Assembly: GCA_913009335.1 (NCBI GenBank)
Contig: CAJVXN010000005.1
Span: 110-64,109 of the forward strand
Length of the DNA stretch: 64,000 nucleotides
Source of the DNA: an uncultured bacterium
Lineage (GTDB): Bacteria; Omnitrophota; Gorgyraeia; Ghiorseimicrobiales; Ghiorseimicrobiaceae
Reading direction: 5' to 3'
Part shown: piece by piece, positions 1 to 17,772 of the stretch
Layout of the letters: every line of letters begins with the position of its first letter
Position numbering within the stretch: position 1 is the stretch's first letter
Program-made: the position numbers and the translations under genes
The notes under the pieces: generated by a model
The model's input: the letters and a program-made list of their open reading frames with translations, nothing else
Told to the model about the DNA's origin: nothing
The model's database searches: none

Positions 1-120
1 TAATTCTGCTTCTGCTTGGTCTAATCGTTTATTAATCCATTTATCCGTATCTTTTGGGTCAAGAGCCATAAGCCATTCTATTTCCCTAAAATTCCTTAAC
101 ACTTCATTAAATGTTTTCAT
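1..120 (-). CDS. hypothetical protein, N-terminal part only (continues beyond window start)
   Basis: ATG at 120 (TAATG overlap with helicase stop); reverse-strand translation MKTFNEVLRNFREIEWLMALDPKDTDKWINKRLDQAEAEL... runs off the window. Confidence 0.35.
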   Translation of the reverse strand, partial: MKTFNEVLRNFREIEWLMALDPKDTDKWINKRLDQAEAEL

Positions 121-1733
121 TATTTACCCCCTTTCAGCATTTCCAAACAAGATTCAAGTAGATTTATTTTCTGCGTTAATGCTTTATAAATCAATTCATC
201 AATCGAATCCTTTGTTATCAAATAAAAATAGGTGCATTTGTTTTCTTGTCCTTTGCGATATATCCTATCATTTGCCTGGGAATGCTGTTCTGATGAATAG
301 GATAAGGAATACCAGATAATATAAGAACATTGTTGAAGATTTAATCCTATACCGCCTGATAATGGATGTGCTAATAGTATGCGGTATTTCTTTGCTTGAA
401 AATCCACGATCGCCTGTTGTTTTGCTTTTTGCGGCATTGCGCCATATAATGTCCGCGCATCATCTTTAAATTCATCTTTTAATCGTTCTATCTCAAAATG
501 AAAATTACACCATATAATGACTTGTTTATCTTCCGGTATTTCTTCAAGCAATTCTTTTAATACTTTAATTTTAGCATCGGATATAAGCACTGTTGCTCCT
601 TGCGTACTGATAACAAATCCGGAAGTTATCTGCCGGAGTTTCATAATTTTCGCAAGCTCATTCACGCCTAAGGCCACATGATCCCCGAATTCTAATATGT
701 TTTCTTTCTTCATTTCTTCATAAGCTGCTTCCTGGACTTTATCCATGTAGATATTCCGGGTTTCATAAATCCTATCCGGTAGATCAAAGCAATCCTTTTT
801 ACGTATTGAAAATGCTTGTTTAGATACATTTTGGATTATCGCTTCTTTCGCGCCTTTCATCGGCCGGTATTGATATCCGCCATACCCGGTGGAGAAAAAG
901 AAAGTATTGCGGAAACGATAAAAATTATCCGTTCCCAAACAATCCGGATTTATAAAAGTCATTTGACCAAAATATTCGAGAAGATTGTTTGGCGCCGGCG
1001 TTCCAGTTAAGCAGATTCTATGAGGAATTTTTTCCCGGCAATCCAATATTGTTTTAGTGATTTGGCTTTTAGGATTTTTTAACTTACTGCTTTCATCAAT
1101 TATGATGCATTTTACTTTTTTTGATATGTCTGTTTCTTTAGATAGTTTCTTAAACTGTTCATAATTAATTAAATAAATATCATAAGGATCATTGCTATAA
1201 AATGCCTTAAGATTATGCCACAATATAACCGCGTTTAATTTACTCCATTTTGCTATTTCAGGTATCCATACGCTTTCAAGTGTTGATAGCGGAGCAACAA
1301 TCATGGCTGGAACTTTCCAATATTCAATTAGCTTAATAGCGCATAATGTTTTTCCTGTACCGGTTTCCATAAATAAAGCATAGCTGTCAAACATTGAGGC
1401 TAATGTTATTGCTTTTTTTTGGTGTTGGAAACAAATAGATAAATCTATTCCGTTTAAACTTTCGATATTGCATTCTTCTGTCTTGATTTTATTCGCGATG
1501 TTAATTTTTTTGTGGTGTTTCTGTCTTTCGGCCCGTAATCTATCATAGATAAGTTTAGTTTCTTCATTATAATCAATTTTAAGATTATCGATAATATCCA
1601 CGAGCTTGCGGATAGGGAATCGCCAAGAGGCATCCGCTTTATTGAATTTAAAATCGCCGATTGCCTTTATTAATTCTTTCTCATGGTATTGGCAACGCAC
1701 TATTGCCTGATTATCTGAAGTATAAACTCGCAT
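120..1733 (-). CDS. SNF2/DEAD-like superfamily-2 helicase
   Basis: Walker A METGTGKTL, motif II IIIDESSKL, motif III LTGTPAPNN, helicase-C region HPLSGGIGLNLQ. Confidence 0.8.
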   Translation of the reverse strand: MRVYTSDNQAIVRCQYHEKELIKAIGDFKFNKADASWRFPIRKLVDIIDNLKIDYNEETKLIYDRLRAERQKHHKKINIANKIKTEECNIESLNGIDLSICFQHQKKAITLASMFDSYALFMETGTGKTLCAIKLIEYWKVPAMIVAPLSTLESVWIPEIAKWSKLNAVILWHNLKAFYSNDPYDIYLINYEQFKKLSKETDISKKVKCIIIDESSKLKNPKSQITKTILDCREKIPHRICLTGTPAPNNLLEYFGQMTFINPDCLGTDNFYRFRNTFFFSTGYGGYQYRPMKGAKEAIIQNVSKQAFSIRKKDCFDLPDRIYETRNIYMDKVQEAAYEEMKKENILEFGDHVALGVNELAKIMKLRQITSGFVISTQGATVLISDAKIKVLKELLEEIPEDKQVIIWCNFHFEIERLKDEFKDDARTLYGAMPQKAKQQAIVDFQAKKYRILLAHPLSGGIGLNLQQCSYIIWYSLSYSSEQHSQANDRIYRKGQENKCTYFYLITKDSIDELIYKALTQKINLLESCLEMLKGGK

Positions 1734-1992
1734 AATTTAATCCATCCATAAGGTTATTAGTCCGAGAATACAAGAAAGTAAAAAACAAGAAATTATAATT
1801 GTAAGAATAATTTTTTCTATAAACACAATAAAAACCCCTTGTTAAAATACCGAGAGAATTGGTTAAAGGAAGGAGGCTTTGAAGCCTGCGTCCTAATTTC
1901 AACAAGGGGTAAATTCATTTTTTTCTTTGCGTTATACCGTTACGATATGAAATAATTTTTGTTAACCAACTCTCTCGTGTCGTCAATAACTT

Positions 1993-2020
1993 AGTATAAC
2001 AGCCCCTTGTTTTTTGTCAA
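1993..2020 (-). promoter_or_regulatory. sigma70-like promoter on minus strand (TTGACA-16-TATACT), flanked by 11-bp inverted repeat ATACCGTTACG/CGTAACGGTAT (1934-1944, 2036-2046)
   Basis: reverse strand reads ttgacaaaaaacaaggggctgttatact; perfect IR arms 91 bp apart bracket it. Confidence 0.35.
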
Positions 2021-2217
2021 GTTTTATTTGACATGCGTAACGGTATAATGGTTACATCTATTTTGTATCCAGTAAGGCCGGATTCGCCTTTGCTTTTTCA
2101 ACTAATAAACGCAAGATTGCCGACCGGGAATTCTTCAAAGGATTATTGTGCTGTATCTTCCTGTCTAAAAATTCCGTATCAGCCCCGGTTAACATTATCA
2201 TCACCGGAAATTTACGT

Positions 2218-2472
2218 TTATTCGTTTTCACTGATTTTACCATCGTTGCCATCTCCTTTCTTGATTTTTGGCGGTAAAACATATTTAATATTTGCTTTCC
2301 ACATTTCATTAATCAACGCGTTAGCCATTCGTATAAGCAATTCAGGTTTATCAAATGGCGCGTGTACGTGCGCATGCCCTAAAGCGCCATGCGTGATTAT
2401 AAGATGCCCCGCAGGATCTTCAAAGTGCAGATTATCTTGCGTATCTTCACAATTTAAAAACGGACATTTCAT
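2218..2472 (-). CDS. hypothetical small Cys/His-motif protein (CPxxxC ... HVHxP), same motif as N-terminus of the 934-aa glycosyltransferase
   Basis: KCPFLNCEDT...GHLIITHGALGHAHVHAPFDKPE aligns with ECPICQKSLGNFNEEIVSHLAVFKGASGTNHVHGPIEDKE of ORF 14618; overlapping ORF 2058..2309 is therefore less likely. Confidence 0.4.
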   Translation of the reverse strand: MKCPFLNCEDTQDNLHFEDPAGHLIITHGALGHAHVHAPFDKPELLIRMANALINEMWKANIKYVLPPKIKKGDGNDGKISENE

Positions 2473-2831
2473 TTTTCTTCTCCTTTCTGTTTTAATACTA
2501 ATTCTTGCGCAATTTCAACAGCATTTTTAACTGCGTCTTGATTTACTCTTTTAAGTTCTAAACAAAGAATATCTGCAAAACTTTTTAACTGATCAAAAGA
2601 ATTAAACGTTGGAAAAGCATCGCCTGTTAAATTAGTTACATTATTGATATAAAGTACCCATTGTACATCGGGTTCTTCTTTTTTACTTTCCATCGTAAAC
2701 TTACAATTAATAGTGGTGTATTCATTAACAACACTTTTAATCTTTTTTAAAAGATCTTTAATCATCTTTCTTCTCCTTTCTAAAAACTTATTTTCTGTGT
2801 TAATAATGCTATTAATATATACAAACACCAT
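2469..2831 (-). CDS. hypothetical protein
   Basis: 120-aa ORF, stop/start overlap with neighbour, AGGAG RBS upstream. Confidence 0.45.
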   Translation of the reverse strand: MVFVYINSIINTENKFLERRRKMIKDLLKKIKSVVNEYTTINCKFTMESKKEEPDVQWVLYINNVTNLTGDAFPTFNSFDQLKSFADILCLELKRVNQDAVKNAVEIAQELVLKQKGEEK

Positions 2832-2876
2832 AATAATAGTATGAATAGCACAAAAGGCATCGTTAATTTAGCAATA

Positions 2877-3329
2877 TCAATTTTCTCTTTTTTCTCTTTC
2901 ATTTTGACCTACCTCCTTCGCTGCTTTGTCAGCAAGATATACAAGCTGCCGAGGTACCCAATAGATACGCAATCGTTTAAATTGTTTGACATAGAATTCA
3001 ATATAACTCTGGAAACGAGCATAGAGAGGTATCATATTATCATGTTTTACTTTCCATGTCTTGTTCGCTTGATTGACTACCAATTGAGAATCAGAATAGA
3101 TATAAACTTCTTCGCTGTCAGGATTGTTATGAGCCGTCCAATCCATTCCTTTTAATAGAGATAGCCATTCTGCCTCGCTGTTTGTCCGGACTCCTACTTC
3201 TTCGTGGATAATTTCTGTCGGCCTTATTATATTCTGATTACTATTTTTATATCTCGCCCAGATAATAACTCCGATCGAAGCAGGGCCGGGATTTCCTTTA
3301 CTCGAGCCGTCGCATAGAATTACGATCAA
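2877..3329 (-). CDS. ribonuclease H (RNase HI-like)
   Basis: N-terminal ILCDGSSKGNPGPASIG, catalytic-like E (TNSEAEW), D (IYSDSQLVV), D (ADKAAK) in RNase H order. Confidence 0.75.
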   Translation of the reverse strand: MIVILCDGSSKGNPGPASIGVIIWARYKNSNQNIIRPTEIIHEEVGVRTNSEAEWLSLLKGMDWTAHNNPDSEEVYIYSDSQLVVNQANKTWKVKHDNMIPLYARFQSYIEFYVKQFKRLRIYWVPRQLVYLADKAAKEVGQNEREKREN

Positions 3330-3352
3330 TTTAATCCTCCTTTCTTTTCAAT

Positions 3353-3556
3353 TTAATTACGATTTTGATCTTGGTCTTTATTGATATATAATCTTCCCGT
3401 TTTTGTATTAACAGAAATTTCATATATTATACCTTTAATCTTAAAGTTATAATCCCAAAATTCTGCATCTCTAACCGTAATTATTTGATAAGGTTTATGC
3501 CTATTTATAGTATCCATTTCCTTTGGCACTTTACCTTTTAACGTATGCTTCTTCAT
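3353..3556 (-). CDS. hypothetical protein
   Basis: 67-aa ORF in compact same-strand array. Confidence 0.4.
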   Translation of the reverse strand: MKKHTLKGKVPKEMDTINRHKPYQIITVRDAEFWDYNFKIKGIIYEISVNTKTGRLYINKDQDQNRN

Positions 3557-3867
3557 TGTGCCTCCGCTCTTTTAATAGCTTCTTCTGCATTCTCTATATG
3601 AAATTGATAGCCGCCTGTTAGATTTTTATGTAAATCACAAGACAATAATCCTTTTAATGCCTCCAACAAATCAGGCGCGGCAGATATTAGTTTGGCGTTG
3701 CCCTCAACTTCTGGAGTTATCGATAGCGCTCCATCATTGATAGATATTAACTGGCATATTGTTTTATTATCAGAACAGACGCAACCTCCCGATTCTTTTA
3801 CTCTCCATGGCCCTGGTGTATGTTTACTCATTTTCTCACCTCTTTTACAATTCGAATTCAATTTCAA
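3553..3867 (-). CDS. hypothetical protein
   Basis: 104-aa ORF, overlapping stop/start with neighbours. Confidence 0.45.
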   Translation of the reverse strand: MKLNSNCKRGEKMSKHTPGPWRVKESGGCVCSDNKTICQLISINDGALSITPEVEGNAKLISAAPDLLEALKGLLSCDLHKNLTGGYQFHIENAEEAIKRAEAQ

Positions 3868-4120
3868 ACGATTTTTCTTGCGGCAATTTTGCTATAACTC
3901 TCCACTTAAAAACTTGATAGCCCTCATGTTTCGTTGTCAGCTTCAAGATAATCGCAAGAGCTAATTGCGCTGCTCCGCTTCCGCCATACCCCCATGAAAA
4001 GCCGTCGGGAGAATGGTTACAAACTATTTGACTTTCGGCCGGAGATAAATACTCGCCATCGAGAAAAACAGATCTCGAGATCGCATCTCCTTTCAACTTA
4101 TGCTTTTTACTCTTTATCAT
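3845..4120 (-). CDS. hypothetical protein
   Basis: 91-aa ORF, RBS GGAAGGGGG upstream. Confidence 0.45.
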   Translation of the reverse strand: MIKSKKHKLKGDAISRSVFLDGEYLSPAESQIVCNHSPDGFSWGYGGSGAAQLALAIILKLTTKHEGYQVFKWRVIAKLPQEKSFEIEFEL

Positions 4121-4140
4121 CTTTACCCCCTTCCTATTGT

Positions 4141-4191
4141 CCTGACTGCTCCTTTCGGAGCAGTTTCGTTTAGGCTCATCAGAGGACTATC
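4141..4191 (-). ncRNA. degenerate hammerhead-like motif (CUGAUGA, GAAA, closed stem III, GUC) with vestigial stem II
   Basis: minus-strand RNA ...AUAGUCCU CUGAUGA G-CCUAAA-C GAAA CUGCUCC-GAAA-GGAGCAG UC AGGGAC...; core present but stem II is only one G-C pair. Confidence 0.3.
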
Positions 4192-4399
4192 CTAATATTT
4201 CTTGTTCAGATACTTTTATAGGATCCTCTATCGCCTTAAGCAATTCTCTTGCTTCGACTATGGCTTTTGTGGCTTCGGTGATTATTTTTTGCTGTGAAAT
4301 AATCTTATTGATTATTGTCCGGATATCAGCTTTTACATCCTCATCCCAGCCGCTATTGATCTCTTGTAAAATTTCCTGTTTCATTTCTGCGATATTCAT
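4187..4399 (-). CDS. hypothetical protein
   Basis: 70-aa ORF. Confidence 0.4.
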   Translation of the reverse strand: MNIAEMKQEILQEINSGWDEDVKADIRTIINKIISQQKIITEATKAIVEARELLKAIEDPIKVSEQEILG

Positions 4400-4402
4400 T
4401 TT

Positions 4403-4756
4403 CTATTTCTCCTCTGTTAATCCAAGTATTGCTTGGATACTCTCTTTAAGACCAGAATAAAACTTATTTAACGCTTCCCTGGCTTCCTTTGTTAATTCTA
4501 CTTTTATTTCGTTATAACCATTGAAGCCTTGCTTTGCTAATACTGTATCAGTTACAGACATAAGACTATAATCCCCTTCTACCTTTAAAACTCCGGTTTC
4601 CTTGTCTTTAGTGATATTAATATCTTCAAGCTTGATTTCTTTAATCATTATTCCCATTTTCTCACCTCCTTTCCTTCTCTTTATTTTTATCAAAATCCAG
4701 TAACACTTCATTGCAGGTTTCGCATTCCACCGCTGCATTTTCTGCCGGTTTCCCAT
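4403..4756 (-). CDS. hypothetical protein
   Basis: 117-aa ORF with RBS. Confidence 0.45.
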   Translation of the reverse strand: MGNRQKMQRWNAKPAMKCYWILIKIKRRKGGEKMGIMIKEIKLEDINITKDKETGVLKVEGDYSLMSVTDTVLAKQGFNGYNEIKVELTKEAREALNKFYSGLKESIQAILGLTEEK

Positions 4757-4847
4757 ATGTAATACAAGTAATCTTATGTCCTGCGTGTGCTTTTAAATCT
4801 TCAAAAGAATTTACACTCACGTTATCTCCTTTCTTTTTACCAGTCAA
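4662..4847 (-). CDS. hypothetical small CxxC protein
   Basis: 61-aa ORF, CETC motif; overlaps 3-prime part of previous ORF in another frame, uncertain. Confidence 0.3.
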   Translation of the reverse strand: MTGKKKGDNVSVNSFEDLKAHAGHKITCITYGKPAENAAVECETCNEVLLDFDKNKEKERR

Positions 4848-5052
4848 ACTCTATCTTTTCAAAATCATTTGCGTCGTGTGCTTCACCGCATTTTTTACAA
4901 GTGATACATGCTACTCCGTTATTAATTACTCTATGGCATTGGAGAATTTGATTCTCCGGGTCAATCATCGCCTCATATACTGTATCTTCTGATACAATAA
5001 ACTCTGTACTGTCGCAATTCGGACTGATACATTTTTTAATAGGTATACTCAT
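4837..5052 (-). CDS. hypothetical zinc-ribbon protein
   Basis: CISPNC ... CITCKKC paired CxxC motifs. Confidence 0.45.
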   Translation of the reverse strand: MSIPIKKCISPNCDSTEFIVSEDTVYEAMIDPENQILQCHRVINNGVACITCKKCGEAHDANDFEKIEFDW

Positions 5053-5215
5053 TTCAAATCCTCCTTTTATGATTTAAAATATTTTTTTAATTCTTTTATT
5101 ATTATATATTCTGGTTCTTGTTGCGCTTGAGGTATTTCAGCTCTAATTAAATCTAAAATCGCTTGTAGTTTATCATTAATAATCTGCTGTATGTCAAACT
5201 TTTTACCTGTTTCAT

Positions 5216-5491
5216 TCATTTTAACACCTCCTTTGAATAAACTACTTCTTGACCTTTCATTTGGATCTCTTCGAGATTTGCTTCAATGGAATCAACCTGG
5301 TAATGCTCCGCCCAAGCTTGTTGACCAAAGCCAATAACTACTTCGACTCCGCAAATAGGACATCTCCATTTATCAGCTGACCAAAGCCGGTATATCTTGC
5401 TATTATTTTGAAATAACTCTGCGACTGTAACTTCATTGTTCTCCGGCCGCAAATCCACTTCGCACTTTACGCATACAGGTCTATGATTCAT
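5216..5491 (-). CDS. hypothetical zinc-ribbon protein
   Basis: CVKC ... CPIC paired CxxC motifs. Confidence 0.45.
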   Translation of the reverse strand: MNHRPVCVKCEVDLRPENNEVTVAELFQNNSKIYRLWSADKWRCPICGVEVVIGFGQQAWAEHYQVDSIEANLEEIQMKGQEVVYSKEVLK

Positions 5492-5720
5492 TCTTTAACG
5501 CCTCCTTTCTTATCTCTCTCTCTTGCTCTTGCTCTAATTCAGCTATTCGTTTCTTTAATCCTTCACTTTCTTGTAAATTAGCAAACATATTCCCATAATT
5601 TATCCATTCGTCAATGCTTAAATCCTCTAGCCAATCATTAAAATCATCAGGCATCATATCATCAGTACCTATGTACTGCGCACCGTGTCTATCTTGTAGA
5701 AACTCTTCAAATTTAATCAA
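5481..5720 (-). CDS. hypothetical protein (TTG start)
   Basis: 79-aa ORF; leader CUGAUGAGGAAAGGAGGCGAUAUAA-UUG shares the conserved SD leader seen before other early genes. Confidence 0.45.
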   Translation of the reverse strand: MIKFEEFLQDRHGAQYIGTDDMMPDDFNDWLEDLSIDEWINYGNMFANLQESEGLKKRIAELEQEQEREIRKEALKNES

Positions 5721-5736
5721 TTATATCGCCTCCTTT

Positions 5737-5783
5737 CCTCATCAGTATCCGATTCACGGATAGACTCCGGATCTCCCGGAGTT
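5737..5783 (-). ncRNA. hammerhead-like remnant (stem III hairpin, GUC, stem I hairpin, CUGAUGA) lacking the GAAA element
   Basis: minus-strand RNA CUCCGG-GAGAU-CCGGAG UC UAUCCG-UGAAU-CGGAUA CUGAUGA GGAAAGGAGG; UUAA where GAAA is expected. Confidence 0.2.
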
Positions 5784-5982
5784 AATTAATTTTAATCTTA
5801 GCGTCTTCCTCACGGACTATTACTTCATTGTAGATAAGACTAGGAGCATCTACTGCTGATTCATATATCCTTAATTTATAAGTAGTTTCTTTCTCAGAGA
5901 TAATTATCTCCTTAATCTTACCTTCAATGGTTACTGTTTCGCCGATTTTATGCATTTGATTTCTCCTTTTTATCTTTCTCAA
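5782..5982 (-). CDS. hypothetical protein
   Basis: 66-aa ORF. Confidence 0.35.
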   Translation of the reverse strand: MRKIKRRNQMHKIGETVTIEGKIKEIIISEKETTYKLRIYESAVDAPSLIYNEVIVREEDAKIKIN

Positions 5983-6586
5983 GAGTTCTTTCTTTTTCGC
6001 CTATCTTATATTCAAAACCATACCCCAGAAATTGTTGACATAAGAGCTTGCCGTCAAACCAATGGCAATCCTCTCCGTCAGATGATACTTTGATACCCTT
6101 ACCAAGATGATGTTTAGCAATGATAAGAAAAGTAATCACCGCTAAATCGTAAGGTCTAAAAGCTGTTTTGCAGAAATCAAAATACAAACCATTTTCTTTT
6201 TGAAGGAATTTTCCGTTGAAAATCCTTTCAAAGATGAAAGACTCATAGGAGCAATCCCCATCACAACATCTTTTTTCAATCTCTGCTCCGGCAAACCAAT
6301 TTCCTTTCTTTGCATCCTCTAAAAACTTCGCAACACCACCGGCATTTTTGGAGGGCCATGGGATTGAGATTGCTTCATTTTTAAGATGTCCGCACTTTAT
6401 TGCTCCGTTCAGCGAAACCAAATTATAATTGAGTATTGGCTCGCCTTCTCCGCTACCGTCAGCTAAAACTACTCCTACTTTTATGATCTCTGGGAGCACC
6501 TTTTTGAAGTCATCAACTATCTTCTTAAACTTCTTTAATTCTACTTCTTTTTGCTTATACCAGTAATGCGTATATCCCATTTTCAT
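5948..6586 (-). CDS. hypothetical protein
   Basis: 212-aa ORF. Confidence 0.5.
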   Translation of the reverse strand: MKMGYTHYWYKQKEVELKKFKKIVDDFKKVLPEIIKVGVVLADGSGEGEPILNYNLVSLNGAIKCGHLKNEAISIPWPSKNAGGVAKFLEDAKKGNWFAGAEIEKRCCDGDCSYESFIFERIFNGKFLQKENGLYFDFCKTAFRPYDLAVITFLIIAKHHLGKGIKVSSDGEDCHWFDGKLLCQQFLGYGFEYKIGEKERTLEKDKKEKSNA

Positions 6587-6595
6587 CTCCTTATC

Positions 6596-7066
6596 TTAAT
6601 ATTTACCGTTACTCTTAACGTGCCGATACTCTGTTACAATATTGCATATTACGCCGTCAAGGAGTATTGCCTGCCCTGTTGTACATCGGCCCCAGAGCTG
6701 ATAATCTTTTATTACAGGATGCCCGAGATCCGCTAGTTTATCGCAAAGCCACGAAGATACATACCACCATTCAAATATCTCCTGCGGATTGTTTTCAGGA
6801 TTATCAAAAGAGGTATTGCAAGCTGTGCAGCAATATTCATCGTTTTCATCAGGAGTTGTAATATCTAATTCTTCTCCGCAACTCGGGCAAATATCAATAT
6901 ATCCATTCTCAATATCATCCCATGAGAACGGAGCTTCTTTATCCTCCCAGGCTTTCTTTAAAATATACTCCGTTTCATGTGTTGAACACATATAAACTTC
7001 TTTTCCGACAAAATCACTGCAAATATCCTGAAATTCTGTCTCCGATACTTCTTTTATTTTATCCAT
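6596..7066 (-). CDS. hypothetical Cys-rich protein
   Basis: 156-aa ORF with CPSCGEE and CCTACN motifs. Confidence 0.5.
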   Translation of the reverse strand: MDKIKEVSETEFQDICSDFVGKEVYMCSTHETEYILKKAWEDKEAPFSWDDIENGYIDICPSCGEELDITTPDENDEYCCTACNTSFDNPENNPQEIFEWWYVSSWLCDKLADLGHPVIKDYQLWGRCTTGQAILLDGVICNIVTEYRHVKSNGKY

Positions 7067-7317
7067 TTTTCATCTCCTTTGCTTTCGTTTAGCTTCGAGC
7101 TGTAACAAAAGCGTTTTTTGTGCTTGATTAAGATAAATAACCTTAACTCTTATCGAACTCTCTTATACCGGTAACTCCGTAATTTTCTTGATGCTGAGAT
7201 AAAAGAAAGACTCCCTCGCCCAAGATAATTCTTGCTCGATATAATCAATCAAAGACATATCTCCATCTTTCCAATCACTCTCGCTGACTTCGATCTCTAA
7301 TTCTACTTTAAATTTTT

Positions 7318-7512
7318 TCATTTCTTCCTCACCTCCTCATCCCCCTCTACTTTTATTTGCTCTATTGCGTTTAAATCACTTAGTGTTCTAGCAATTTCTT
7401 GACAACTTTCATAATTCAAATTCAACCAATTAGTTTCTCCGTTATCAGAGATAAATTTTACGGATACTCTCCCGTGCAATTTCTCTAATTGTTTTCTATA
7501 GTAACTTTTCAT
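7318..7512 (-). CDS. hypothetical protein
   Basis: 64-aa ORF; stop overlaps ATG of an unlisted about 52-aa ORF (7163..7321, minus). Confidence 0.4.
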   Translation of the reverse strand: MKSYYRKQLEKLHGRVSVKFISDNGETNWLNLNYESCQEIARTLSDLNAIEQIKVEGDEEVRKK

Positions 7513-7516
7513 CTTC

Positions 7517-7762
7517 TCACCTCCTTTTTACAAACTCTCTATGTAATGTTCTTTTACTGAAATAAGCGGAGCTTTGATTTCCATGCTTAACAGGTTTCTT
7601 ACGATATAACTCCCAAACCTCAACTCTCCCCCCGTATGTTACTATTGTATTTGCTCTTACTCCGTAATTCCTCATTGTGTCTCCGAAGAATTTCATTGTA
7701 TCGTGCGTGAAATAATACGGAGATGTTTTAAGTGTTGCTTGTTTTAATTCGCTTGGCGTCAA
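7517..7762 (-). CDS. hypothetical protein (start moved to TTG at 7762)
   Basis: ORF track ATG at 7786 is the AUG inside the hammerhead CUGAUGA core; in-frame TTG 24 nt downstream has the RBS GGAGGUGAU at proper spacing, as in other early genes. Confidence 0.45.
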   Translation of the reverse strand: MTPSELKQATLKTSPYYFTHDTMKFFGDTMRNYGVRANTIVTYGGRVEVWELYRKKPVKHGNQSSAYFSKRTLHREFVKRR

Positions 7763-7779
7763 TATAATCACCTCCTTTC

Positions 7780-7847
7780 GCCTCATCAGAGCCGGATCTC
7801 CGGCTGACTCCTGCGATTAGATTACTCTGTATCACAGGAGTTTCGGC
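7780..7847 (-). ncRNA. type II hammerhead ribozyme candidate
   Basis: minus-strand RNA GCC GAAA C-UCCUG[21-nt loop]CAGGA-G UC AGCCGG-AGAU-CCGGCU CUGAUGA GGC: all core nucleotides (CUGAUGA, GAAA, A15.1-U16.1, G10.1-C11.1, GUC cleavage site), 6-bp stem III, 6-bp stem I with tetraloop, 3-bp open stem II. Confidence 0.6.
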
Positions 7848-8011
7848 TTTACTTTAGCTCTTCAATATTAACAAGGTTGTCTTTACGTTCAGAAGATTCC
7901 ATATAATCAACGAACTTTTCTCCTGCGATCTCTTCCGCTTCTTCTTTATCCCATGCCTCCACCTCTGTTGAATATACCGGCAGAGATATTGTTACTTTGA
8001 ATTTAGGCATA

Positions 8012-17422: not shown

Positions 17423-17772
17423 TATTCCCTAAAGAATTATATCAACCGATAGCAAGATTTATTCAGCGTGTAATTGATAAACCTACCTTGTGGGATATAG
17501 ATAAATATTCTAAAGATGAAATACCGAAAGAACTTCTCCTTGATGAATATACTATTGAATTAGGGAAGTTTATTATGATGGGCGAAGAAGATTATTTTAA
17601 AGATATAATACCAGTGAGAATGTATGGAAATAAAAGAGTTAATATTAGTAAAGATGAAATAAAAAAAATTGCTTTAAAAAAATTTGAATTAATAGGAAAA
17701 GTTCAAAAAGGCGAAAAAGTTTTAATAAGCGATGATTTTCGCGGGATTGATAAAATTCTAATACAAAAATGA
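17416..17772 (+). CDS. hypothetical protein
   Basis: 118-aa ORF overlapping the stop of the upstream gene. Confidence 0.45.
   Translation: MLIFPKELYQPIARFIQRVIDKPTLWDIDKYSKDEIPKELLLDEYTIELGKFIMMGEEDYFKDIIPVRMYGNKRVNISKDEIKKIALKKFELIGKVQKGEKVLISDDFRGIDKILIQK

Follow-up and report, generated by a model that had tools for sequence, protein, structure and literature searches.

A spacer between two small genes of a tailed-phage genome holds, at 7780-7847 on the minus strand, a motif that a preliminary description took for a type II hammerhead ribozyme, possibly one that gates translation of the gene behind it. The locus (HH1 below) raises the questions of whether this motif is a ribozyme or a chance arrangement of hairpins, where the gene that follows begins, and what cleavage at this point would mean for the transcript. 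Coordinates refer to the window, the whole stretch of 64,000 nucleotides that was analyzed.

Genomic context of the locus

The window represents the genome of a tailed phage, whose plus strand codes for portal, capsid, tape-measure, and tail proteins. A minus-strand block of small genes at 1 to ∼12000 includes those for a CHAP hydrolase, a DUF1281 protein, and a superinfection-immunity protein. HH1 occupies exactly the space that separates two small genes of this phage early operon. Positions 1-17771 are 100% identical to NCBI record DRER01000121.1, which is binned as a Candidatus Omnitrophica MAG (GCA_011051015.1), and a second assembly is 99.6% identical. The Candidatus Omnitrophica label on a tailed-phage contig is probably due to binning. 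A megablast search with 5500-11500 found no relatives in phage and plasmid collections. At the junction of the two divergent gene blocks there is a tRNA-Asp (GTC; 12031-12120, plus strand), which at 90 nt is unusually long for a tRNA-Asp. Within the minus-strand operon, a stretch of ∼800 nt (10124-10930) contains only short ORFs (41-79 aa) and has no Rfam match.

The locus comprises the following features, in the direction of transcription:

7849-8010, minus strand: upstream cistron of 53 aa (ORF call), with GGAGG and then ATG, adjoining the stop codon of the preceding gene
7780-7847, minus strand: HH1, a complete type II hammerhead ribozyme as judged by sequence, Rfam family RF02276, covariance model R1, minimum free energy (MFE) fold, and shuffles
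7767-7775, minus strand: Shine-Dalgarno sequence GGAGGUGAU, 4 nt past stem II of HH1, with GGAGG (7775-7771) 8 nt before TTG 7762
7517-7762, minus strand: downstream cistron of 81 aa, read from TTG 7762, a member of a widespread small phage protein family (667 homologues)

The stop codon of the 53-aa ORF (TAA, 7851-7849) lies 1 nt upstream of stem II. An identical protein is encoded on six contigs, and there is a weak PHROG match; in IMG/VR the protein has no relative, and its sole match in the protein database is the identical sequence. The downstream 81-aa protein has no Pfam or PHROG match. Two minus-strand ORFs (7849-8010 and 5782-5955), which end flush at HH1 and at the hammerhead-like relic described below, respectively, are missing from the annotation of DRER01000121.1.

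Sequence and fold of HH1

Read 5′ to 3′ on the minus strand, HH1 is GCC GAAA CUCCUGUGAU-ACAGAGUAAUCUA-AUCGCAGGAG UC AGCCGG-AGAU-CCGGCU CUGAUGA GGC. Its elements, all on the minus strand, are assigned as follows:

7847-7845: 5′ strand of stem II, GCC (sequence)
7844-7841: G12, A13, A14, and A15.1, GAAA (sequence)
7807-7841: stem III hairpin, CUCCUGUGAU/AUCGCAGGAG together with A15.1-U16.1, 11 bp in total (fold)
7830-7818: loop III, ACAGAGUAAUCUA, 13 nt (sequence)
7807-7806: U16.1 and C17 (sequence)
7806/7805: predicted scissile bond, 3′ of C17 (7806) and 5′ of A1.1 (7805) (hammerhead numbering applied to the sequence)
7805-7790: stem I hairpin, AGCCGG-AGAU-CCGGCU (sequence, fold, and R1)
7789-7783: core CUGAUGA, C3-A9 (sequence)
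7782-7780: 3′ strand of stem II, GGC (sequence)

All 11 invariant core nucleotides are present in the sequence. C3-A9 and G12 A13 A14 (7844-7842) are in place, and the pair A15.1-U16.1 is formed by A7841-U7807. C17 is C7806, in agreement with the rule that this position is H (not G), and the G10.1-C11.1 pair is intact. The helices follow the type II order, with stem II open (3 bp), stem III capped (11 bp), and stem I capped (6 bp). For a 76-nt stretch containing HH1, the MFE fold is the exact hammerhead three-way junction (−31.6 kcal/mol, z = −4.9). The preliminary description had given stem III as 6 bp with a large loop; the hairpin stands, but not its length, since UGAU/AUCG extend the outer 6 bp to a stem of 11 bp, closed by a loop of 13 nt.

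Secondary-structure thermodynamics, in models that ignore the tertiary energy of the core as well as ribosomes, gives the junction a probability of 0.4-0.5 in isolation, compared with 0.001-0.4 in longer transcripts. In the MFE folds, the 3-bp stem II is a poor competitor once the upstream coding sequence is added.

We also looked for tertiary contacts. A pseudoknot between loop I (AGAU) and the 3′ tail has at best 2 bp of complementarity in HH1, whereas most type II members have at least 4 bp. Across the subfamily with short stem I, 36 such loop I/3′-tail pseudoknots were observed, compared with 30 ± 3 in shuffled sequences, which is not a significant difference. In the hammerhead fold, stems I and III point in opposite directions. 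The complementarity of AUCU in loop III to AGAU in loop I was therefore rejected as a tertiary contact.

Significance of the match

The Rfam family RF02276 (Hammerhead_II) matches 7775-7848 on the minus strand over the full model with 31.5 bits, which does not reach its gathering score of 37. The E-value is 6e-4 in a search of 2 kb and 0.02 when the whole window is searched with 4227 families; a scan at default Rfam thresholds gives no match, and RF02276 emerges only with E-value thresholds. In the Rfam alignment, loop III of HH1 carries 19 inserted nucleotides and the 3′ tail has a deletion; the extra length of stem III and the departure of the 3′ tail from the consensus probably explain the low score.

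Could a hairpin-rich spacer have acquired CUGAUGA and GAAA fortuitously? The loose pattern GAAA..TC..CTGATGA does occur more often than expected (seven matches in the window vs. 1.9), most of them plainly not hammerheads. However, a strict type II descriptor, which demands the core, capped stems I and III, and 3 or more bp in stem II, finds HH1 as the single site in the window and finds nothing in any of 300 dinucleotide shuffles. With the covariance model R1, derived from 36 unrelated type II hammerheads of phages, HH1 reaches 47.2 bits (E ∼7e-16), within the family range of 22.6-71.5 bits, and the next non-hammerhead match in the window has 10 bits. The Rfam E-value of the 2-kb search and the presence of two further hammerheads in the same operon also speak against chance, which is effectively excluded as an explanation; its probability is negligible. 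By sequence, fold, Rfam, and covariance model alike, HH1 is a genuine, canonical type II hammerhead, as the preliminary description had proposed, with exact coordinates.

The start codon of the downstream gene

The AUG of the ribozyme core (7786-7784) has consequences for gene annotation. An ORF call at 7517-7786 starts there because it takes the first start codon that follows a stop, and the suggestion that this start is spurious, with TTG 7762 as the true one, is borne out by several comparisons. TTG 7762 is in frame, and its spacing from GGAGG (8 nt) is as for other genes of the operon; the identical leader GGAGGUGAU also precedes ATG 9332. The N termini of homologues (19 aligned of the 667 detected) read M-T-P/A-S-E-L-K at the position of TTG 7762, and in 34 IMG/VR loci the homologous gene starts there with ATG ACn CCn. 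The NCBI record begins the gene at GTG 7771 (84 aa), which lies inside the Shine-Dalgarno sequence. Re-annotation of the downstream gene from TTG 7762, rather than from the ATG of the ribozyme or from GTG 7771, is supported by these sequence comparisons, with the spacer annotated as a ribozyme.

Relatives of HH1 in viral genomes

We found no independent orthologue of HH1; copies elsewhere are confined to DNA of the same phage that is 100% (L035) or 99.6% (L160) identical. Homologues of the downstream gene have no hammerhead upstream in any of 34 IMG/VR loci or in the contigs of the closest relative (L036-L039), and exact and semi-degenerate searches of IMG/VR with the stem I and core sequence gave no match.

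A search of IMG/VR with the frame GCCGAAAC..GUC..CUGAUGAGGC, in which pairing was left unconstrained, recovered at least 141 distinct motifs, spread over at least 120 viral contigs (L040-L159); all of the motifs share the GCC/GGC stem II of HH1. In a MAFFT alignment of 36 of the at least 141 motifs, 98.1% of the cells in hammerhead pairs are paired, compared with 67% in shuffles, and there are 166 double-sided changes; slid controls give 34%-44%. Since the search did not ask for pairing, the strong covariation in stems I and III indicates that these motifs are real type II hammerheads that share the stem II of HH1. Model R1 derives from these sequences. The strong covariation belongs to the wider phage family that HH1 matches; the copies of the HH1 locus itself are all near-identical DNA.

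The position of HH1 relative to its neighboring genes recurs in this family. Among the matches listed, an ORF of at least 40 codons stops adjacent to stem II in 127 of 141 motifs, and the upstream stop codon falls within −1 to +5 nt of stem II in 108 of 141. Downstream, 125 of the 141 motifs listed have a Shine-Dalgarno sequence with a start codon, at a median distance of 27 nt (lower quartile, 18 nt). HH1, 1 nt from the upstream stop codon and 17 nt from the downstream start codon, is thus typical in its layout and at the tight end of the family range. The start-codon artifact described above is also shared: In 35 of 141 motifs, again among the matches listed, a frame that begins at the core AUG runs for at least 45 codons and enters the next gene. 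The artifact is therefore general, and the core AUG of type II hammerheads is a general source of wrong starts in phage annotation.

We note a recurrent 3′ tail in the GCC/GGC type II hammerheads. Among the matches listed, 20 out of 142 have (C)CAUCAG right after GGC (loci include L045, L053, L054, L060, L063, L082, L091, and L142). This tail is complementary to CUGAUG of the core, so that the two could pair in a hairpin and make the core unavailable, for example, once the RNA has been cleaved.

Other hammerheads in the operon

HH1 is accompanied in the same operon by two further hammerheads and one degenerate copy, all on the gene strand of the phage genome:

9352-9415, minus strand: HH2, a second type II hammerhead by sequence (RF02276, 34.7 bits, below the gathering score; R1, 35.4 bits)
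4139-4211, minus strand: RAGATH-1-like type I hammerhead by sequence (RF03152, 35.2 bits; gathering score, 56.3)
5739-5783, minus strand: hammerhead-like relic by sequence (local R1 match to model positions 6-49, 37.9 bits)

HH2 has a stem II of 8 bp with one bulged A and a loop I of 3 nt, and ATG 9332 starts 19 nt after it. HH1 and HH2 have nothing in common outside the core. In the hammerhead at 4139-4211, stem II is shrunk to G-CCUAAA-C, whose loop sequence CCUAA has its complement, UUAGG, directly 5′ of stem I; the element sits flush between the stop codon TAG 4189-4187 and the next gene (start at ∼4120).

The relic at 5739-5783 keeps stem III, UC, stem I, and CUGAUGA, which are followed by GGAAAGGAGG and TTG 5720. 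UU replaces G12 A13, stem II is absent, and the TAA stop codon of the upstream ORF overlaps A14/A15.1. Alternative registers that would make it a type III or permuted hammerhead were tried, and none of them pairs. It is probably a decayed hammerhead copy in which both hairpins are kept, and such a visibly decayed copy indicates that hammerhead decay occurs in this genome. The three intact hammerheads are 17-19 nt from the next start codon (17 nt for HH1). The core of the relic is followed by 18 nt up to the start codon, that is, 15 nt past the position that a 3-bp stem II would occupy.

Proposed transcript processing and alternative explanations

What would such an element do in its transcript? 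We consider it likely that HH1 is a functional type II hammerhead in an intercistronic spacer of a long tailed-phage accessory-gene operon, where it would cleave the polycistronic RNA of which it is part. Once the polymerase has passed 7780, stems III and I would fold, the 3-bp stem II would close the junction, and the RNA would cleave itself between C7806 and A7805. The products would then separate, since only the 3 bp of stem II join them. The upstream fragment would terminate with the 11-bp stem III hairpin, followed by a C that bears a 2′,3′-cyclic phosphate. The downstream mRNA would begin with a 5′-OH placed directly on the 6-bp stem I hairpin, followed by 14 unpaired nucleotides, the Shine-Dalgarno sequence, and TTG 7762. 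Cleavage would divide the polycistronic transcript into segments, the blocks bounded by HH2, HH1, the relic, and the RAGATH-1-like hammerhead being ∼1.5-2 kb long, and the stability and translation initiation of each segment would be freed from the RNA upstream, much as with an engineered ribozyme insulator. We infer cleavage of HH1 in vivo, dissociation of its products, and effects on half-life and translation from this arrangement of elements.

In prophages, several hammerheads flank genes or short gene blocks, and tandem prophage hammerheads cleave native polycistronic RNAs in vitro, one set also in Escherichia coli (PMC3088659). In Desulfovibrio vulgaris, three type II hammerheads located close to phage-like genes undergo cleavage in vivo (PMC8782182). 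Processing into RNAs that differ in stability or translation efficiency is a standing, still unproven proposal (PMC3088659, PMC6765202), and its benefit is so far undemonstrated for any phage (PMC6765202). Counting against processing at HH1 are the score below the Rfam gathering threshold, the failure to find a pseudoknot between loop I and the tail, the finding of identical copies only, the decayed neighbor at 5739-5783, and the weakness of stem II in long transcripts. Fast cleavage at physiological Mg2+ needs pseudoknots or loop contacts; the pseudoknot is nevertheless not obligatory, being present in ∼40% of hammerheads and absent in ∼60% (PMC3088659).

The preliminary description had instead placed the function of HH1 in translational control, holding that the 3′ strand of stem II runs into the Shine-Dalgarno sequence and that folding or cleavage could gate the downstream cistron. 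HH1 would then be a cis-regulatory switch that sets the accessibility of the Shine-Dalgarno sequence and TTG 7762. The elements are certainly close, since only 4 nt lie between HH1 and the Shine-Dalgarno sequence and 17 nt between HH1 and the start codon, so that a 30S subunit bound to the uncleaved transcript would overlap with stem II and with the core. Cleavage of a ribozyme in the 5′ UTR is also required for translation in eukaryotic RNA viruses (bioRxiv 10.1101/2024.05.16.594327). However, GGC and the Shine-Dalgarno sequence do not overlap, being separated by a 4-nt GAAA (7779-7776), and in the hammerhead fold the Shine-Dalgarno sequence is unpaired, with no predicted pairing to any hammerhead element. 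For four of five 3′ ends, its probability of being unpaired is 0.52-0.60 in the 3′ product and 0.36-0.42 in uncleaved RNA, as a gate would have it; the difference is small, and it is reversed for the fifth end (0.01 in the product vs. 0.28 uncleaved). These accessibilities, like the junction estimates, vary too much with the chosen ends to back a regulatory claim. The proximity is, moreover, a family-wide layout that is often looser (median, 27 nt among the matches listed), and a constitutive ribozyme cuts once and does not switch back. We found no ligand-binding or alternative-structure element, and it is because HH1 shows no such sensor that we rate a translational gate as unlikely. Cleavage may plausibly affect how the downstream cistron is expressed, but through processing rather than through occlusion of the Shine-Dalgarno sequence.

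Two further explanations would leave HH1 without a role as a ribozyme or without a service to the phage. HH1 might be catalytically poor or dead and persist either as two stable hairpins that act as RNase barriers or targets, or as a neutral remnant nearing the state of the relic. Its stem II is marginal in sequence context, its score is under the Rfam gathering threshold, and a decayed copy with the same hairpins and downstream leader is found 2 kb away. Yet the relic has lost G12 and A13, whereas in HH1 the 11 invariant core positions, A15.1-U16.1, C17, and G10.1-C11.1 are all intact. The 3-bp GCC/GGC stem II is the norm in the at least 141 phage hammerheads, active natural ribozymes exist with a stem II of only 1-2 bp (PMC3088659), and ∼60% of natural hammerheads lack the pseudoknot as noted above; loss of catalysis thus seems quite improbable to us. 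Just as improbable, in our estimation, is that hammerheads travel with, or delimit, mobile accessory-gene cassettes, so that their position reflects acquisition and not service to the phage. This explanation draws on several features of the region: HH2 and HH1 bracket the Imm_superinfect and DUF1281_C genes, which are typical of accessory regions; no hammerhead is linked to the downstream gene family (zero of 34 IMG/VR loci and zero of four contigs of the closest relative); only two of 18 genes of this region are shared with that relative; and near-identical hammerhead arrays occur in other phages (e.g., L044 and L048). The block has no associated repeats, integrase, or transposase, however, and HH1 and HH2 are alike in the core only, which rules out recent copying of one from the other. 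Acquisition as a cassette is in any case compatible with, and not opposed to, processing of the transcript.

A more general role can also be proposed. Phage type II hammerheads may be natural intercistronic insulators, whose topology would leave a hairpin on both new ends (stem III on the 3′ end and stem I on the 5′-OH end) and so give the segments of one early transcript their own half-lives and a translation independent of context. This proposal draws on their position flush at the upstream stop codon and at a set, short spacing from the next Shine-Dalgarno sequence, with 15-19 nt to the start codon for the four copies in this phage; we regard it as possible but rather doubtful. If it were true, the relic at 5739-5783 would be a copy that has lost catalysis and has kept the hairpins and the leader.

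Comparison with known systems

HH1 has the same core, topology, and phage context as the bacterial and phage type II hammerheads of RF02276 (Perreault et al. 2011, PMC3088659), several of which also flank short gene blocks in one transcript, as here. Its frame, GCC-GAAAC ... GUC ... CUGAUGA-GGC, is identical to that of the at least 141 IMG/VR examples. It differs from the usual members in an unusually long stem III (11 bp, with a 13-nt loop) and in a 4-nt loop I, AGAU, in place of the common GUnAnG-type loop. Unlike the consensus, it has no loop I/3′-tail pseudoknot, and its 3′ tail leads straight to the Shine-Dalgarno sequence.

The closest parallels are the tandem sets of prophages in Clostridium scindens, Azorhizobium caulinodans, and at the ardA locus of Agrobacterium tumefaciens (PMC3088659), in which two to three hammerheads of mixed type are spread over ∼2 kb among small accessory or anti-defence genes. 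In the phage studied here, three hammerheads and a relic are spread over 4139-9415 of a polycistronic RNA, and the genes are different (Imm_superinfect, DUF1281, and genes of no assigned function). The prophage sets were shown to cleave in vitro, and that of A. tumefaciens in E. coli, whereas cleavage of the present set is predicted. Since the arrangement has been described for prophages since 2011, HH1 is a new example and not a new kind of element.

Among engineered elements, the RiboJ insulators from Lou and colleagues (2012) are reportedly a plant-satellite-RNA hammerhead with an added 3′ hairpin, placed after the promoter. RiboJ and HH1 are alike in that the hammerhead lies just upstream of a Shine-Dalgarno sequence, and in HH1, too, cleavage would remove the upstream RNA, and the downstream gene would be translated from a short leader of fixed length that contains a hairpin. 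Unlike RiboJ, HH1 is natural, of type II, and intercistronic, and by this analogy it would have an insulating effect. Cleavage in a leader also alters the fate of the downstream message in glmS and in the 5′-UTR hammerheads of eukaryotic viruses, to which HH1 may be likened. The glmS ribozyme is ligand dependent, and once it has cleaved, the mRNA is degraded (by RNase J1); in HH1 no ligand or sensor element is evident. The viral 5′-UTR hammerheads serve cap-independent translation in eukaryotes (bioRxiv 10.1101/2024.05.16.594327).

The locus is a further case of a phage operon in which several hammerheads are interspersed among the genes. The IMG/VR survey quantifies the succession of stop codon, ribozyme, Shine-Dalgarno sequence, and start codon (∼90% of 141 motifs, among the matches listed), which frames, and does not answer, the question of what phages gain from it. 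Dense arrays of type II hammerheads are also found in this survey, with 10 or more copies on several contigs: L044 (IMGVR_UViG_3300038412_000035) has at least 11 matches and L048 (IMGVR_UViG_3300014059_000106) has 10, each within ∼5 kb and with roughly one hammerhead per small gene.
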